Shown here: one piece after another, positions 1-54,466 of the stretch | Position numbering within the stretch: the first letter of the stretch is position 1 | How the letters are laid out: each line of letters starts with the position of its first letter | IMG/VR virus record: IMGVR_UViG_3300031965_000432 | Coordinates: 1-54,466 of that record | DNA from: a virus | Taxonomy: Duplodnaviria > Caudoviricetes | DNA length: 54,466 nt | Strand: one strand, 5' to 3' | Translations under genes and position numbers: made by a program | The notes under the pieces: model-generated | What the model was told of the DNA's origin: nothing | Database searches by the model: none | Seen by the model: only the letters and a program-made list of their open reading frames with translations

Positions 1-637
1 TATTAGGACTACTCGACGATTTAGCGCTAGCCGTGTGGTTTATGGACGACGGCAGTTCATCGGGACCGTCGTCCGCGACGCTGTCGACGTACGCGTTACG
101 GAGCGAGGATGTTGCTCTGCTGGCGGAGCATCTGTCGGACTGCGGATTCTCCTGCAAAAGCACGCAGGGCGGAAAAGGCCCGACAGTGCGCTTTTCAGCA
201 CAAGGCGCGCGCAAACTACTAGAAACAATTTCGCCGTTCATGCACCCGGTGTTTCAATACAAACTAGACAGAAAGCCGCGCCCAAAAACTGCGCGTGTTC
301 CCCGGGTACAGGCGCGCCGACTGGCGCACTGCGCCATTTGCAACGCGCCGTTCCGCCCGTCACGATCTGCCACGACGTGTGGGAAGGAGCGATGCCGAAA
401 GGCGCTCAATGTACGGCTTGTGACGGCGCACAGGCAGCGGCAGCCCGACCAGGTTACCGAGATTATCTGCGTGATTTGTGGCGAGGTCACGGTTACGCGA
501 AGAAGGCCACGCAGCCGCCCGCTAAGTCAGACATGCAGCCGCCAGTGCCGCGCGAAGCTGTCATGGATGACACGGTTTACTGTCTCGACGTAGAGACTAA
601 TCACAACTTCTTTGCTGATGGGGTACTCGTCCATAAC
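1..637 (+). mobile_element. Intein 1 of UvrD helicase, C-terminal part (starts 53852)
   Basis: Block F/G TVYCLDVETNHNFFADGVLVHN followed by +1 Cys (638-640). Confidence 0.92.
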
Positions 638-2581
638 TGCCAAGACCTGAACCCTTTGCAGTGGGCTCTCATCGAACAATGGGCGCAGCACGCAGAACGG
701 CTCGTACTCGCGGGAGATCCGGCGCAAGCCATCTATACCCACGTCGGCGCCAGACCCGATGAACTCCTGACACCGTTGCCGGCCGATCAGAGAGCGCTCC
801 TTGGGAAGGAGCGCTCGTATCGCCTGCCCCGGGCCGTTCACGCATTCGCCGAAGACTATCTCCGGCGTGAGCATAGCCCGGCGATCATGGAGGGCCGCGA
901 CTGGAAACCGCGCGACGCGGACGGCGACGTCCGACGCGTCGGCGGCGCGTGGCAAGACGGAGAGGCTATTGCCGCGCACGCGGTTCATGCCGCGCAAGAT
1001 GGCACGGTAATGGTCTTAGCGACGTGCGCGTATATGCTGGGCCCCACTATCTCGGTCCTCCGGGATAGTGGGGAACCGTTCCATAACCCGTACCGGCGGC
1101 CCAACCCGCAATGGAATCCATTACACCGGTCCCGGAACCGGTACCAGCGCGCCGATGATGCTGATATAGGAACGTCCACGATAGATAGACTCCGCGCGTT
1201 CCTCAGCGAGGAATGGACCTGGGCGCAAGCGTGGCGGTGGCTCGAGATGTTATCCGCTCAAGGTGAACGGGGCATCTGGCAGCGTCGCGGGCTACGGGCT
1301 GACTTCGTGGAGATGGTTGAGCGTGCAGGCCGCGCGCCCATAACGATAGATGATCTCCGCGTGGGGCTTACCGACGCCGCGCTCGAGGCAGTGCGCGGAC
1401 GGGATCTACGCTGGCTGGTGGCTAGCGCCACGCAGCGATACCAGGCGCCGCTCCGCTACGGAGCGGCCGTCGTTCGACGGCACGGACCGCAGGGGCTTAC
1501 GCAGGAGCCGAAGATCATGGTAGGCACGAATCATTGCTCGCCCCCCGACGAACTGATATTGACAAAGCGGGGGCAAGTTCCCATTGCGGAACTGGTCCTA
1601 GGATTTGATCGGGTTGTCGGATACCACCGGCCAACCAACACGATTCTCGGATCTGAGGCACATAAGAGTTCACGGGGATACGACTTTCAACGATCAGAGC
1701 AGCCGTATAGCGGACCGCTGATTGTTCTTACGACGCCGCTAAGCCAAACCAGAGTAACTCCGAATCACCGCGTACTCGTTAAATTTGACGACGACGCGTT
1801 TTGCGGGCGCTGGGTCGTCTACTTAATGCGCAGAAACGACTGGTGGCGTATTGGGATCTGTGTGTCAGCGCACCGCCCGTATCGAGCTGGGGGAGTAGCG
1901 GCTCGCCTGTCGACGGAACAAGGGGACGCCGCGTGGATTCTAGCGGTCTGTGAAAGTCGTCGTGAGGCGCTAATGATGGAAGGCATGCTGCAGGCAAAAT
2001 ACGGCATCCCGGGGCTGACATTTCAGTCAGCCAAGGCGCGCGCACTAAACGACGAGGACTTGCACGTGGTCCATACCGCTAGCGCGTCGTGGGTCGGGGT
2101 GCGTGCGCACGCTGCACTAGCCGACTTGGGAATGTCCCCGAGCTGGCCCTTATACCGGCGAGGCGTTGATGAGTCTGGCAATGGCAAACGGAACATGCGG
2201 GGATGGTTTGAAACAGAGGCCGCTAACCTCGTATGCCTGAGCAACCGCGTGTGCATGGCCGTCTACACGGGAGGGCGCAAAGCAGTTCCCGCCAGAGCGA
2301 GCGTGACATCCGTCCCATATGACGGACCAGTTTTCGGGTTAGAAGTTTCTCCGCATCACCGGTATCTTAGCGGCAATGCCGTGGTTCACAACTCGGTCAA
2401 GGGGGGAGAAGGAATGACAGTGATACAGATACCGGAGATCAGCCGCGCCGCGTACGTCGACGGATTCAAACCCGGAGGTCACGACGCGAACACTAGGACG
2501 CTCTACGTCGGCCTTACGCGGGCACGTGAACGATTGTGGATAACCGGCATGAGCCGCGCTGGGTATTCGGCGGGCGTCTGA
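2..2581 (+). CDS. UvrD/PcrA-like SF1 helicase, 3' part (continues from 53281-54466); contains the end of intein 1 and all of intein 2
   Basis: After removing inteins: (DE)CQDLNPLQW, motif III LAGDPAQAIY, motif IV RSYRLP, motif V TNH|SVKGGE, motif VI LYVGLTRARERL. Frame is open from position 2. Confidence 0.93.
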   Translation: MRTTRRFSASRVVYGRRQFIGTVVRDAVDVRVTERGCCSAGGASVGLRILLQKHAGRKRPDSALFSTRRAQTTRNNFAVHAPGVSIQTRQKAAPKNCACSPGTGAPTGALRHLQRAVPPVTICHDVWEGAMPKGAQCTACDGAQAAAARPGYRDYLRDLWRGHGYAKKATQPPAKSDMQPPVPREAVMDDTVYCLDVETNHNFFADGVLVHNCQDLNPLQWALIEQWAQHAERLVLAGDPAQAIYTHVGARPDELLTPLPADQRALLGKERSYRLPRAVHAFAEDYLRREHSPAIMEGRDWKPRDADGDVRRVGGAWQDGEAIAAHAVHAAQDGTVMVLATCAYMLGPTISVLRDSGEPFHNPYRRPNPQWNPLHRSRNRYQRADDADIGTSTIDRLRAFLSEEWTWAQAWRWLEMLSAQGERGIWQRRGLRADFVEMVERAGRAPITIDDLRVGLTDAALEAVRGRDLRWLVASATQRYQAPLRYGAAVVRRHGPQGLTQEPKIMVGTNHCSPPDELILTKRGQVPIAELVLGFDRVVGYHRPTNTILGSEAHKSSRGYDFQRSEQPYSGPLIVLTTPLSQTRVTPNHRVLVKFDDDAFCGRWVVYLMRRNDWWRIGICVSAHRPYRAGGVAARLSTEQGDAAWILAVCESRREALMMEGMLQAKYGIPGLTFQSAKARALNDEDLHVVHTASASWVGVRAHAALADLGMSPSWPLYRRGVDESGNGKRNMRGWFETEAANLVCLSNRVCMAVYTGGRKAVPARASVTSVPYDGPVFGLEVSPHHRYLSGNAVVHNSVKGGEGMTVIQIPEISRAAYVDGFKPGGHDANTRTLYVGLTRARERLWITGMSRAGYSAGV
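3..593 (+). CDS. LAGLIDADG homing endonuclease with C-terminal Zn-finger repeats, 3' part (starts 54141); overprinted inside intein 1
   Basis: Second LAGLIDADG motif LAVWFMDDG, PFMHPVFQYKL, then two CxxC...C..C clusters. Different frame from the intein. Confidence 0.88.
   Translation, partial: LGLLDDLALAVWFMDDGSSSGPSSATLSTYALRSEDVALLAEHLSDCGFSCKSTQGGKGPTVRFSAQGARKLLETISPFMHPVFQYKLDRKPRPKTARVPRVQARRLAHCAICNAPFRPSRSATTCGKERCRKALNVRLVTAHRQRQPDQVTEIICVICGEVTVTRRRPRSRPLSQTCSRQCRAKLSWMTRFTVST
1535..2392 (+). mobile_element. Intein 2 of UvrD helicase (motif V) with an in-frame GIY-YIG-like central domain
   Basis: Starts CSPPDELILT, block B TPNH, ends VFGLEV...GNAVVHN|S. Removal restores TNHSVKGGE. 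Confidence 0.9.
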
Positions 2582-2847: not shown

Positions 2848-3176
2848 CGATCTTCCATGTAGAAGACGGGCTTGTCTAGCCCCTTTGCCAGTTCGATCTC
2901 CGCCTTGACTCCAACCGACTCCGCCCAGCCGTCGATCTTGAGGACCCATACTTCATCGCATGCCGCAACCATTCGACGGTCGAACTCTGCCCAGTACGCG
3001 AAGTCACCCGGCAGATCGTGCCGCGTCGCGATCATATGCGAGTGCGCGATAGGCGAGAACACCAAGTAGCCGTCGTGCATGAGCTCCGCGGCCGCGTCGA
3101 CTGCCCGACAGAAACGCCACTTCCGCACGTCAGGATCTTCGTGGCTGTATGGCGATGCTAGGTAGATGAGCTTCAT
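2844..3176 (-). CDS. DUF1937 / nucleoside deoxyribosyltransferase-like protein
   Basis: IYLASPYS...VFSPIAHSH...CDEVWVL..DGWAESVGVKAEI. Confidence 0.85.
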   Translation of the reverse strand: MKLIYLASPYSHEDPDVRKWRFCRAVDAAAELMHDGYLVFSPIAHSHMIATRHDLPGDFAYWAEFDRRMVAACDEVWVLKIDGWAESVGVKAEIELAKGLDKPVFYMEDR

Positions 3177-51455: not shown

Positions 51456-52154
51456 CTACGCCGCGTCCGCTTGCGCGACGGGGATGCCCTTCAGCGCAGG
51501 CACGAGCCGAGCTGCATACACGCGGATCGCGTCGGACTCCTCGGCGGCGAGTGGCTCGCCCCGCCGGAACACCGGCCGGGAGTACCCGACGCCGCCCTTG
51601 CTCTGGGTCTTCTCGAGCGTAATCACCGTCTCGACGCCGAACGGATCCGTATTGGTATCGAACAGCGCGAGATTGTAGACGTACGCCGCTCGGAACGCCG
51701 ACGGCGGCGCCGGGAAGTACAGCGGCAGCCGGTGGCCGGGCTGCAGCAGAAAAACCCGCGTGATATGCCTGCAAGCCTGCGCGTTGCCGCCATCCGGCTT
51801 GCTGCCCCATTGCGACAGCGGGCAGGTTAGGCAGTCTCCACCCGGATCGCCGTGGCCAGTCACCGCATCCTGTGACGAACAATCGGGTGGCTGCCCGCCG
51901 CCCGTATCCTCAATCGAACCCGCCCAATACGCGCGCACCGGCTGCCGCAGGATCATTACCCCGCGAAGCTCTTTCGTGGCGTCGCCCGATGGCAACTCAA
52001 AATTGAGCCCGCCGCCGGCGGGAACTTTGACGGTCGGCAGTACCGTCACATCGATCGCGCCGCCGCCAGCCGCCATCTCCGCGAACTGGCGGGCGACGTC
52101 ATCATTGATCGTGAGCGCGTACGACTCGCGCGTTGCAAGTGAATCCTTACCCAT
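51456..52154 (-). CDS. putative ssDNA-binding/recombination protein
   Basis: KVPAGGG..F, RAYW..PPDCSS.D, C..CP.SQWGS, AC; position in the replication module. Confidence 0.6.
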   Translation of the reverse strand: MGKDSLATRESYALTINDDVARQFAEMAAGGGAIDVTVLPTVKVPAGGGLNFELPSGDATKELRGVMILRQPVRAYWAGSIEDTGGGQPPDCSSQDAVTGHGDPGGDCLTCPLSQWGSKPDGGNAQACRHITRVFLLQPGHRLPLYFPAPPSAFRAAYVYNLALFDTNTDPFGVETVITLEKTQSKGGVGYSRPVFRRGEPLAAEESDAIRVYAARLVPALKGIPVAQADAA

Positions 52155-52196
52155 TGAGCATTGCTCCTTGAAATATGAACTTTGGTCCGTGTGCGG

Positions 52197-52589
52197 TTAC
52201 GAGCCGCGAACGCGTAGCCCCGTCCGTTTCTCGACCTTGAGCGCGCCACGGATTGACTCAGGGATGGTGGCTAGCGTTCCCTCTCGTTCATGCTCTTGGT
52301 ACCACGCCCGTAACTTCGGATGCGAAATCGTTACGAGCTCAAGCAATCCGTTATCACTGAACAGCGAGTGCAGTAGCGCCGTATCGCCGCCGACCAGCGT
52401 TGACGTGTGTGAGTAGACCGTTTGGCCTGCGTCTGTCTTGACGGACGTTACGCGCTCGGCTAGGAACTCCTCGAGCAGCGCCGCCTCGACGGCAACTAAC
52501 TCGTCCTTGGCCTCTCGAAGCTCGGCCTCGAGCGCGCGTTTGCGCTCCGTGGCGTCCGTGAACCGGTCGACTAAGTGCGGTGTGGGCAT
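52197..52589 (-). CDS. conserved phage replication-module hypothetical protein
   Basis: N-terminal coiled coil, V.SVKT..G.T, H..LRAW..E; first gene after the leftward promoter. Confidence 0.65.
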   Translation of the reverse strand: MPTPHLVDRFTDATERKRALEAELREAKDELVAVEAALLEEFLAERVTSVKTDAGQTVYSHTSTLVGGDTALLHSLFSDNGLLELVTISHPKLRAWYQEHEREGTLATIPESIRGALKVEKRTGLRVRGS

Positions 52590-52626
52590 TGATCGTTCCT
52601 CCATGCGCTACGTCACCCGTAGCAGG

Positions 52627-52659
52627 TGCTAGAATAGCGCGTACATGCGTTCACGTCAA
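52627..52659. promoter_or_regulatory. overlapping divergent promoters
   Basis: Minus: TTGACG-17-TATTCT (52659-52631). Plus: extended -10 TGcTAGAAT (52627-52635). Confidence 0.65.
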
Positions 52660-52673
52660 ACGAAGGGGCGTTT

Positions 52674-52886
52674 ATGGCTATAACGCCATTGACCGAAAAA
52701 ACGGCGCGTCGTTGCGCCTGTGGGTGCGGAGAGACGTTTATTCCGCGGCGCCGGAATCATCGCTACGTTTCCCCCGCGCATCGCATGGCGTACCATCGCC
52801 GTTCGACGCCGGCCATCCGACTCACTGAGCCGCGCATCCGGCGCATGATGGAAGCCGCGTTAGCCGCCGCGATGGAGTCGGAATGA
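52674..52886 (+). CDS. small Zn-finger protein
   Basis: CACGCGETF...Y.S..HR; AAGGGG SD; ATGA coupling to the HNH gene. Confidence 0.6.
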   Translation: MAITPLTEKTARRCACGCGETFIPRRRNHRYVSPAHRMAYHRRSTPAIRLTEPRIRRMMEAALAAAMESE

Positions 52887-53284
52887 CGCGGCGAGGTCGT
52901 CCACGCGCGCGGAACCTTCTAGAGACTCGAACGTGTGAAACGTGCCTCCAGCCGTACCATCCGTTAAAGGAAAAGCCGTTTCAGAAATACTGTTCGCGGC
53001 CGTGTGCAAACGCAGGCACGGCAAGACGGACAGCGGCGGCGAGAGCGGAAAGGCAACGCGGTCGCGGCGACGGCAAGGCGTACCGCAAGCTCAATGGTCG
53101 CCACATGCACCGCGTTATTGCGGAGGCTACTATCGGGCGCGCCCTTTTACCGAAGGAAGTAGTGCACCACATCAACGGGAACATCCTCGACAACCGTCCC
53201 GAAAACCTTGCCGTACTGCCGTCTCAGGGAGAACACGCGCGGATTCATGCGCGTGCTCGTAGAAAGGAGGTTGCCAAACAATGA
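52883..53284 (+). CDS. free-standing HNH endonuclease
   Basis: CETC..YCSRPC; HRVIAE..IGR.L...EVVHHINGN..DNRPENL....H..IH. Confidence 0.9.
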   Translation: MTRRGRPRARNLLETRTCETCLQPYHPLKEKPFQKYCSRPCANAGTARRTAAARAERQRGRGDGKAYRKLNGRHMHRVIAEATIGRALLPKEVVHHINGNILDNRPENLAVLPSQGEHARIHARARRKEVAKQ

Positions 53285-54466
53285 GCTTGCGTCGTCTCCG
53301 AATAGTCGGGCCGCCGGGCTCGGGTTGACAAAACCTCAACAATTAAGTCGATGTGCGAGCGCTGGGTCGACTCCGGCGAATACGAACCATCTGACTTCGT
53401 CCTAACGAGCTTCACCAAGGCCGCCGCCGTCGAGCTCGCTGGCCGTATCGACGTGCCCGAAGGGCACGCAACAACGATCCATGCGCTTTGCTACCAGGCG
53501 CTAGGCCGCCCGCCGATCGCCGAGAAAGGCGCATTGCTCAAGGAATGGAATGAGTCGTGTAAGCGCGACGACTGGAAGATCCCCGTTACGGGCGCAGGCC
53601 TTGACGACGGCGTGAGCGCGCAAGACGGTGCCGTAGGCGATGCGCTCAGCATGTATAGCCTAGGGCGCGCTCTCCTACATCCGCTAGATCACGTCTGGTA
53701 CGACCAAGGCTGGGAGCTTCGGGACTTTATCAAGACGTGGGAGGGATTCAAGCGAGACACGGATAGCATCGACTTCACAGACATGCTCACGATGGGCCTA
53801 GAGTCGGTGCCGAATCTTCCACAAACGCCGCGCGTACTACTTGTCGACGAGTGCCTGCCATACAGCTCACGGGTCACACTGGCCGACGGGTCAACACTGC
53901 CCATCGGGGAAGTTGTTCACCGCAAACTAGAGGCATCTGTTTTAGCCTTCGATGAAGCGAGCGGTCAGGTAGTTGCGCGAAGAATAGTTGGTTGGCGCGC
54001 GGTCCCCCGGCGGGAACGAAAAATTGTGGAGTACGGCGGACTGCGCGCGACGGAAGACCACCCGATATTTGTCGGCAACGGCATGTACATGCCGTTGCAC
54101 CGGGTTAGTATGTTGCACCGCGCTGTGCTATGCTTAGACCATGAAGCGATACAACGCGAGCGACGCTCTAACCCCTACGGAGCGATCGATTGTTCTCGGG
54201 TCGCTGCTTGGCGACGCTTCGATCTCCCGAAATCCCGGACCGGGCGGGAACGCCCGCGTGAAGTTTGTGCAGGGAGTGGCGCAGCACGACTACCTAACGT
54301 GGAAAATGCGGTCTCTCCAGCGCTGGGTGCGATCCCCGATTCAAGGACCACAAATCAGCGGCTTCGGGGGAATCGTCTACCAATTCTCCACAACATCACA
54401 CCCTGTCTTTACCGACCTGCATACATTGATCTACGCGGACAAGTGTCGGCAGAAGCGCATCAGTCT
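53281..54466 (+). CDS. UvrD-like helicase, 5' part; Walker A interrupted by 4 extra nt
   Basis: AAGGAGG SD, MSLRRLRIVGPPGSG-[TGAC]-KT, SFTKAAA.EL, TIHALC, DF.DML, LLVDE|C; frame from 53330 is open to the window end. Confidence 0.88.
54126..54134 (+). promoter_or_regulatory. internal extended -10 promoter for the nested LAGLIDADG gene (leaderless)
   Basis: TGcTATGCT, then 6 nt, then ATG 54141. Confidence 0.65.
54141..54466 (+). CDS. LAGLIDADG endonuclease, 5' part (continues at 1-593), overprinted in intein 1
   Basis: Hand-translated MKRYNASDALTPTERSIVLGSLLGDAS...QHDYLTWK...STTSHPVF..L...Y...KRI. Confidence 0.88.
   Translation, partial: MKRYNASDALTPTERSIVLGSLLGDASISRNPGPGGNARVKFVQGVAQHDYLTWKMRSLQRWVRSPIQGPQISGFGGIVYQFSTTSHPVFTDLHTLIYADKCRQKRIS

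Follow-up and report, generated by a model that had tools for sequence, protein, structure and literature searches.

We examined IMG/VR virus record IMGVR_UViG_3300031965_000432 (Duplodnaviria; Caudoviricetes). The window is this whole record, 54,466 nt. Near its right end, a free-standing gene for an HNH_3 homing endonuclease overlaps the start of a gene for a UvrD-like helicase, and the Walker A motif of the helicase is split by 4 extra nucleotides that include a stop codon. The features at this site are as follows.

52883..53284, + strand: free-standing HNH_3 homing-endonuclease gene (Pfam PF13392, E = 3.1e-12); its stop, TGA at 53282-53284, overlaps the helicase ATG (ATGA, 53281-53284)
53264..53270, + strand: Shine-Dalgarno sequence AAGGAGG, 10 nt ahead of the helicase ATG (read from the sequence)
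53281..53325, + strand: 5' segment of the helicase, M1-G15 (MSLRRLRIVGPPGSG), aligned with the N-termini of homologues P0004-P0010; GGT at 53323-53325 is the presumed take-off codon
53326..53329, + strand: 4 extra nucleotides, a TGA stop and C (or TTGA, 53325-53328, placed into an ancestral GGC); the same in the Logan contig of sequencing run X1
53330..53851, + strand: remainder of the N-extein (KTSTIKSMCERW ... LLVDE); Pfam UvrD-helicase; +1 frame relative to the start

The interrupted helicase gene and the support for its sequence

In translation, the helicase segment that opens with ATG at 53281 reads MSLRRLRIVGPPGSG. Its last codon is GGT (53323-53325), and TGA follows at 53326-53328. From 53327, the +1 frame encodes D-KTSTIKSMCERW and carries on across the N-extein as a UvrD-like helicase. 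The sequence GGT-TGA-C-AAA-ACC at 53323-53335 therefore has 4 extra nucleotides between the GPPGSG and the KT of the Walker A motif, and removing either TGAC (53326-53329) or TTGA (53325-53328) regains GPPGSGKT. Full-length homologues set the register: in the protein alignment, P0004 reads MNEYRVIGPPGAGKTTWVKHQVEKW across the Walker A motif, so exactly 4 nt (TGAC, or TTGA within an ancestral GGC) split the glycine from the lysine. GxxGxGK[ST] is unbroken in all 80 of the related viral helicase loci. A reading made earlier from the sequence alone (the sequence-only reading) had described the split motif, its restoration by either deletion, and a strong Shine-Dalgarno start coupled to the HNH stop. 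The homologues, the translation, and a second assembly confirm this description.

The assignment to the UvrD/PcrA-like helicases of superfamily 1 is based on Pfam UvrD-helicase matches in the N-terminal part (E = 8.4e-5; 22.8 bits, where the cut-off is 23) and the middle part (E = 6.7e-8), and on 47 homologues of the middle extein, 46 of them other proteins, with E values down to 6.6e-61. The N-extein is 41-49% identical to full-length helicases. The 4 nt aside, nothing closes the helicase frame: it is open from 53327 up to the right end of the record and again from base 2 through 2581, and we infer that it is continuous across the record ends.

We considered whether the insert might be a sequencing or assembly error, as the sequence-only reading had allowed. 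The 4 nt are supported by a contig from a second assembler: the Logan contig of run X1 (54,443 nt, word depth 15) matches positions 51500-54445 of the window with no differences and no gaps. X1 is probably the source sample, and contig-level data may hide minority variants. Thus, this agreement excludes an assembler artifact but not a minority variant. Although contigs, probably from the same sample, are the sole support for the 4 nt in this genome, two assemblers agree at word depth 15 without a gap, and the same insert is present in unrelated public records (see below). We regard an error as next to negligible.

A related strain in X1 and X2 has 27 listed differences from the window at 53464-53821. 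By our count, 23 of the 27 are on third codon positions, which indicates that the N-extein evolved under purifying selection. The strain relatives in X1-X3 do not cover the insert; the pieces from X2 and X3 are short, diverged, and outside 53282-53380.

A simple +1 frameshift at GGU-UGA-C, like that of prfB (release factor 2), would also bypass the stop. The UGA-C context is the same, and the +1 frame is open from GAC. However, the prfB shift requires the slippery sequence CUU U and an upstream Shine-Dalgarno sequence, while in the window, the glycine tRNA cannot re-pair on GUU and the sequence has no Shine-Dalgarno-like element 3 nt upstream. Also, prfB shifts by +1, but the window needs +4 to restore the motif, and its interrupted relatives need +2 to +10. 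A +1 shift would give GSG-D-KT, with aspartate between the invariant glycine and lysine, and G-K-[ST] is kept in 80 of 80 relatives; the sequence-only reading had argued that such a shift would spoil the motif, and this is borne out. We consider a prfB-like shift to be highly improbable. We also considered a promoter, as TTGACA is found at 53325-53330, and dropped it: there is no usable -10 element at 17 nt, and versions of the insert with TAG lack the hexamer.

Interrupted Walker A motifs beside homologous HNH_3 genes

Searches aimed at the window's own helicase found no second case of this insert. A nucleotide search of phage records with 52600-54466 gave no match, and a protein-pattern search of viral contigs for close relatives of the N-extein found none. 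Allowing any 4 nt at G^K (between the glycine and the lysine) in the GPPGxG context gave nothing helicase-like among the matches listed (at least 115). None of the 20 viral matches to a TGA-bearing 4-nt insert at G^K were helicases, and neither were any of the 11 matches to TGAC at G^K in genome contigs or the 14 matches to a +6 insert with TGA at G^K. In metagenome contigs, a variable-gap pattern gave 76 matches, all to unrelated AAA+ genes: 75 have an intact P-loop and one has a chance 4-nt gap.

The P-loop of another UvrD-like helicase, in L003, is also broken, at a different position (TTT GGC CCT CCT TGA CCA GGA ACA GGC AAA). A scan with the pattern GPP-TGA-x-GxGKT identified 16 viral contigs, and in 15 of these the match is the N-terminus of a member of the UvrD-like family (FGPP*[P/L]G[T/S]GKTT). 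The position matters: 15/16 matches at PP^G are helicases, versus 0/20, 0/14, and 0/11 for TGA elsewhere in the UvrD-type P-loop. Past the stop, 460-962 codons are open in frame in 15 of these 16 proline-type +6 loci; the remaining one runs off its contig. The codon after TGA is CCN or CTN, and the CTN codons keep the third base of the preceding proline codon in 5 of 5 cases, which is what re-pairing of the peptidyl-tRNA-Pro 6 nt farther on would predict. Identity among these lineages is as low as 30-42%, and they are intermixed with intact lineages. The scan used TGA; one TAA case (L473) was met by chance. Reading TGA as a sense codon was rejected, as neighboring genes in these loci are open under genetic code table 11.

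UvrD-like phage helicases from across clades (L150-L165) thus carry CCN TGA C[CT]N inside GPP^G of the Walker A motif, and from their sequences these inserts are candidates for natural +6 stop-hops, in which the ribosome would pass over a stop codon and resume downstream.

An HNH homologue lies directly upstream of the helicase in 3 of the 16 proline-type +6 loci, as compared to 0 of 80 loci with an intact P-loop. Because of this difference, we searched with an alignment of four HNHs. This search brought up analogues in SNF2-type helicases, which the UvrD-specific patterns had missed. The HNHs that precede interrupted helicases match that of the window with E values of 2e-22 to 7e-20, and their identity to it over the HNH core is 55-62%.

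The survey set comprised 80 viral loci with homologues of the upstream HNH_3 gene. We read the downstream gene in each and classified it ourselves. Many of the loci are near-duplicates, and the counts below are of loci.

Helicase, Walker A interrupted: 47 of 80 loci
SNF2-like helicase, Walker A intact: 25 of 80 loci
DEAD-like helicase, intact: 2 of 80 loci
Other P-loop gene, intact: 4 of 80 loci
Nothing recognizable downstream: 2 of 80 loci
Insert sizes in the 47 interrupted loci: +2, 2 loci; +4, 12; +5, 3; +6, 14; +7, 8; +8, 1; +9, 4; +10, 2; 17 nt, 1

In 44 of the 47 interrupted loci, a stop codon directly follows the take-off codon. Among inserts of +5 to +10 with a stop, take-off and landing codons encode the same amino acid in nearly all cases (the exceptions are L429 and L463). 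The matched pairs include GGT TAA GGA, GGT TGA GGC, GGT TAG GGC, CTT TAG CTT, and CTT TGA CTA, as well as GGT TAA G GGC, GGT TGA AG GGC, GGT TGA AAA GGC, and CCN TGA CCN/CTN. The Walker A motif of the interrupted genes is of the GKT type in 47 of 47 loci, versus GKS in 20 of the 25 uninterrupted SNF2-like genes beside an HNH. The window has the features of this class: an HNH_3 gene upstream with an overlapping stop, an insert in the Walker A motif, a stop directly after the take-off codon, and an open downstream frame.

The +4 design of the window, GGT-T(GA/AG)-C-AAR-ACN, is present in 12 of the surveyed loci (5 lineages) and in GenBank record PV036441. The SNF2-like helicases of L425 and L479 have GGT TGA C AAA AC(T/C), and GGT TGA C AAA AC was also read in L487; L414-420, L430, L432, and L455 have GGT TAG C AAR ACN. 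All 13 nt of the window's GGT TGA C AAA ACC are identical in L479, and 12 are shared with L425 and PV036441. In the latter (Ruminococcus phage NatCom_29429), the sequence is GGT TGA C AAA ACT, and the gene is annotated as a 30-amino-acid open reading frame (ORF) and a truncated helicase. In all 11 of the +4 loci that we measured, the helicase ATG is at or overlaps the HNH stop, as in the window; the N-terminal piece has 31-33 amino acids, and 416-427 codons lie between the insert and the stop. Pairwise identity among the HNHs of the +4 lineages is just 40-53%, yet each of the 7 lineages keeps GGT, a stop, and C.

These comparisons bear on whether the insert is a lone frameshift or repair scar in one genome, with nothing programmed or recurrent about it. 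In favor of a lone event, the site is not covered in any close relative of the window phage, and the insert is a singleton among UvrD-like helicases. However, L479 has the same 13 nt beside a homologous HNH, with 12 of them shared by L425 and PV036441, and by our arithmetic a random 4-nt insert would put TGA-C exactly after a glycine codon with a chance of ~0.4%. A lone mutation is very unlikely. The sequence-only reading had listed a repair scar or a recent null mutation among its alternatives and had suggested that related helicases be searched at the same G/KT boundary. The insert is not unique to this genome, since the same motif lies beside HNH homologues in L425, L479, and PV036441; the +4 interruption at G/KT was found in HNH-linked SNF2-like helicases, but the pattern searches met it nowhere else in the UvrD-like family. 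The insert is real DNA and recurrent, and it is tied to a mobile HNH_3 gene. Comparison of the loci also establishes that the same design recurs beside homologous HNH genes in unrelated helicase families.

Other arrangements were seen in the survey. In L402, L404, L405, and L412, a homologous HNH_3 gene lies directly upstream of other P-loop genes (AAA-type ATPases) with intact Walker A motifs, which suggests that this nuclease family targets P-loop genes in general. In L403 (positions ~2944-3010), the gene downstream of the HNH is a UvrD-like helicase with a 10-nt insert, GGC ACC TGA A. There, the +1 frame is open from a GTG just past the HNH stop and leads to an alternative P-loop, APEGAGKT, so a frame switch of the whole N-terminus may be another way out. 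In the window, a 70-amino-acid ORF without a Pfam match (52674-52886) overlaps the start of the HNH gene by ATGA. Its CxCGCG...H motif resembles the N-terminal cysteine motif of the longer HNHs in L152 and L162, and it may be a split-off N-terminal domain of the HNH.

Cassette mobility and the proposed bypass

Two loci of the +4 group bear on the mobility of the HNH gene. Between L414 and L416, the flanks are ~90% identical, as compared to 96.6% for the HNH gene and 99.1% for the 5' end of the helicase up to the insert. Relative to the lysine codon, there are 19 mismatches in -650..-500, 13 in -500..0 (with none in the last 104 nt), and 7 in +14..+50. This pattern implies that the HNH, the helicase 5' end, and the insert share a history that is younger than that of the flanks, with the right boundary at the insert.

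Cultured phages provide a presence-absence pair. Bacillus phage Carmen17 (L484, NC_048698) contains the HNH (gp4) and a 10-nt insert (ATG GGG TTA GGT TGA CGTA GGC AAA ACT), and its helicase coding sequence is annotated from a start downstream of the Walker A motif. Its sister Wes44 (L488, NC_048725) has no HNH and an intact Walker A motif (ATG GGA CTT GGG AAA ACG); the two are 86.8% identical over their shared parts. Both phages infect B. thuringiensis DSM-350, as described in PMC6430321. Inserts are also present in Paenibacillus phage Pd_22F (+5) and Bacillus phage S4-5 (+9, CTT TAA ATC CTT). In Corynebacterium phage StAB, the HNH is accompanied by an intact GMGKT. The annotation of Streptococcus phage Javan630 looked split, but its Walker A motif is intact, so we rejected it. 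Comparison across these loci shows that the HNH gene, the 5' end of the helicase gene, and the insert form a single unit that is jointly present or absent.

We think it probable that the 4 nt are the signature of a mobile HNH_3 cassette, in which the insert destroys the cassette's own target and ribosomes hop over the insert. In this mechanism, a free-standing HNH_3 gene just upstream of the helicase, the 5' end of the helicase gene, and a short insert with a stop in the Walker A motif would travel together; in the window, TTGA would have been inserted into GGC to give GGT-TGA-C-AAA. In naive phages, the HNH would cut the Walker A DNA where it is uninterrupted (GGN AAR ACN) and would copy itself in, and the insert would destroy the cut site and so confer self-immunity. 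The immunity step is proposed because of the Carmen17/Wes44 pair, the cassette boundary at the insert, and the association of GKS versus GKT with the absence or presence of inserts. The ribosome would then pause with peptidyl-tRNA-Gly on GGU and the poorly terminating stop UGA-C in the A site, slide 4 nt, and resume at AAA, so that GPPGSGKT and hence the helicase would still be made. The hop-junction peptide would span ...VGPPGSGKTSTIK... in the helicase of the window and ...LDMGLGKTISTL... in Carmen17 gp3. The hopping step is proposed because a stop consistently follows the take-off codon, longer inserts have matched landing codons, the downstream ORFs are intact, and Carmen17 is viable. We see about an even chance that the mechanism is general, that is, that widespread mobile HNH_3 cassettes protect themselves with stop-bearing Walker A inserts of 2-10 nt while short-range hopping keeps the helicase working.

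Several observations weigh against this mechanism. First, the +4 form lacks a cognate landing codon: the glycine tRNA would land on GAC (AGC in the TAG version), which keeps only two G:C pairs, so hopping may be inefficient. Second, local RNA structure is not significant (z = -0.71 for the region 53296-53365, whose fold is equaled or bettered by 44 of 200 shuffles), and a scan for tRNA genes found no helper tRNA encoded in the window. Third, the window's +4 insert at G^K is a singleton within the UvrD-like family (0/20 viral and 0/11 genome matches), and no close relative of its helicase N-terminus was found in viral or metagenome contigs. Fourth, near-duplicate loci mean that the survey counts overstate the number of independent events, and five HNH-adjacent helicases keep an uninterrupted GKT. 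More broadly, bypass and self-immunity are inferred for every member of the class, and a selfish element with drive could be maintained even if it harms the gene that it invades. The sequence-only reading had proposed a minimal bypass or immunity element linked to the HNH; the comparisons strongly support the link to the HNH and the idea of such an element, while the skipping of the 4 nt by ribosomes and the cutting of the uninterrupted allele by the HNH are still proposals.

The cassette might instead be a selfish knock-out: real and linked to the HNH, with an insert that inactivates the helicase or leaves trace activity, and spreading by homing drive despite its cost. The helicase would be dispensable, or another helicase or the host would make up for its loss, and fresh invasions would take the place of broken lineages. 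The helicases of the L414 group have dN/dS ratios of 0.05-0.13. However, since the cassette of this group is younger than its flanks, the low ratio may pre-date the insert and is no proof of later function. The absence of a matched landing codon in the +4 form would also fit a knock-out, as would the odd inserts in L423 (17 nt), L439, and L452, which have no stop after the take-off codon. In L403, the alternative open frame leading to APEGAGKT means that a product is possible without hopping, and GenBank annotators call truncated helicases.

Other features are hard to explain if the helicase is simply lost. In-frame sense inserts or silent changes would give immunity without cost, yet 44 of the 47 inserts have a stop exactly after the take-off codon. 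A knock-out also leaves unexplained why the codon for the take-off amino acid is repeated at the landing site in nearly all stop-bearing inserts of +5 to +10 (L429 and L463 aside). Downstream ORFs are full length in 11 of the 11 measured +4 loci and in 15 of the 16 proline-type +6 loci, and the +4 design is invariant across HNHs that are just 40-53% identical. Finally, the helicase is under purifying selection in cassette-free relatives, which argues against dispensability. A knock-out is possible, but we consider it doubtful.

To our knowledge, the understanding of programmed translational bypassing has rested almost entirely on gene 60 of phage T4 and on yeast mitochondria. In T4, an HNH homing endonuclease (mobA) accompanies a 50-nt coding gap in gene 60 that is bypassed in translation, as described in PMC5009743 and in a preprint (bioRxiv 10.1101/2022.08.31.505936). 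The HNH_3 gene and Walker A insert would together form a homing-endonuclease-plus-bypass cassette of this known kind. According to the same sources, the likenesses are that a free-standing HNH lies directly upstream of the target, which in T4 is an essential gene of DNA metabolism; that a non-coding insert begins with a stop right after a glycine take-off codon; and that the insert is thought to protect against the nuclease, in an element that is mobile and inserts repeatedly. In contrast to T4, the inserts here are 2-10 nt (4 in the window) rather than 50 nt, no take-off stem-loop is detectable at the window's site, the target is a helicase Walker A motif and not a topoisomerase, and the nuclease belongs to the HNH_3 family. 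Also, the window's take-off codon GGT and landing triplet GAC are not cognate, although the codons match in nearly all of the +5 to +10 relatives.

Synthetic stop-hops in E. coli, in which matched codons flank a stop (Weiss et al. 1987, as cited in PMC5009743), have the layout seen in the relatives: CTT TAG CTT, CTT TGA CTA, GGT TGA GGC, and CCN TGA CCN. However, those were engineered constructs, and the hop in the window would be +4 and out of frame. The 2016 review (PMC5009743) states that no natural in-frame stop hop was known. A short bypass has been proposed for the terminase of Streptomyces phage Hau3, and Magnusiomyces mitochondria have "byp" inserts. These cases involve other genes and other hosts, and unlike the class described here, they have no link to an adjacent HNH and are not centered on Walker A. 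In the literature that we searched, which was mostly outside subscription journals and without supplements, neither HNH-linked Walker A inserts nor natural stop-hops in phage helicases were described.

If the inserts are hopped, they would be the first natural stop-hops, and there would be dozens of them, including the +4 out-of-frame hop GGU-UGA-C-AAA, whose landing triplet is not cognate. Two or more helicase superfamilies would have such hops, as would Bacillus and Paenibacillus phages that can be cultured, and the hops would form a graded natural series (+2, +4, +5, +6, +7, +8, +9, and +10) with varied stops and landing codons. Carmen17 and Wes44 are a culturable pair with and without the cassette, which makes the rules of take-off, sliding, and landing directly testable. 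The proposed mechanism would also imply that the most conserved DNA of P-loop genes can serve as the target of a homing endonuclease, and that such a nuclease can pass from one helicase family to an unrelated one. For annotation, gene callers split or truncate such helicases (in GenBank, into a 30-amino-acid ORF and an N-terminally cut helicase), so functional genes would be recorded as fragments.

The rest of the helicase gene and its inteins

The remainder of the helicase gene contains two inteins and is divided by the ends of the record.

53852..54466, + strand: intein 1, N-terminal part (CLPYSSRV..., TEDHP block); host frame open to the record end; insertion site DE^CQD, as in L003, L004, L006, and L007
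54141..54466, + strand: LAGLIDADG_2 ORF, first part (Pfam PF03161, E = 6.9e-15, profile 1-91); own ATG after TAG at 54135-54137; +1 to the host frame
3..593, + strand: LAGLIDADG_2 ORF, second part (Pfam PF03161, E = 7.3e-10, profile 98-167); C-terminal cysteine-rich motifs; TAA at 591-593
2..637, + strand: intein 1, C-terminal part, ending ...VYCLDVETNHNFFADGVLVHN; host frame, open from base 2; Pfam Intein_splicing
638..1534, + strand: middle extein (CQDLNPLQW ... MVGTNH); Pfam UvrD-helicase, E = 6.7e-8; 47 homologues
1535..2392, + strand: intein 2 (CSPPDELILT ... AVVHN), in frame; same intein at the same site in P0031 and P0035
2393..2581, + strand: C-extein (SVKGGEG ...) and stop (sequence and homologue alignment)

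The splicing blocks of intein 1 are in the host frame, and its LAGLIDADG_2 endonuclease is encoded by its own ORF in the +1 frame. Its five nearest relatives (L003-L007) are likewise encoded by free-standing ORFs. All five open with the same M/V-K-x-Y and lie, in the +1 frame, within helicase or terminase inteins. Across the endonuclease ORF, the host frame has no stops over 254-369 codons in 5 of 5 of these loci; as a background, the corresponding frame in the 25 long ORFs of the window has 0.037 stops per codon and is open for 215 codons at most. We therefore rejected the reading of intein 1 as a split intein or "fractured gene." The sequence-only reading had stated that the rest of the gene and both inteins look intact. 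The helicase frame is indeed open through both inteins, but the statement needs amending for intein 1, whose endonuclease is a separate, out-of-frame ORF.

Actinophage inteins with the endonuclease in another frame or strand were reported by Gosselin, Arsenault, and Gogarten (bioRxiv 10.1101/2025.01.02.630785). As in intein 1, their splicing blocks are in the host frame and the endonuclease is a separate overlapping ORF. That survey describes LAGLIDADG and VSR-like endonucleases on the antisense strand and EndoVII-like ones in frame 3, in the polymerase, capsid, terminase, and thymidylate synthase genes of actinophages; its list does not include a LAGLIDADG endonuclease on the same strand and in the +1 frame of a helicase intein. 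The middle domain of intein 2 (1535-2392) is not of the LAGLIDADG type (WVVYLMRR..WWRIG..) and recurs in helicase inteins at two different sites (P0031, P0035, and P0044).

Both ends of the record (54466 and 1) lie inside one LAGLIDADG ORF, which implies that the genome is circular or permuted, and the second assembler breaks within 21 nt of the same place. About 14 nt appear to be missing at the junction, judging from a 54,480-nt contig that carries the window's own C-terminal protein, P0003. Adding 14 nt at the junction would make the endonuclease frame and the host frame both continuous.

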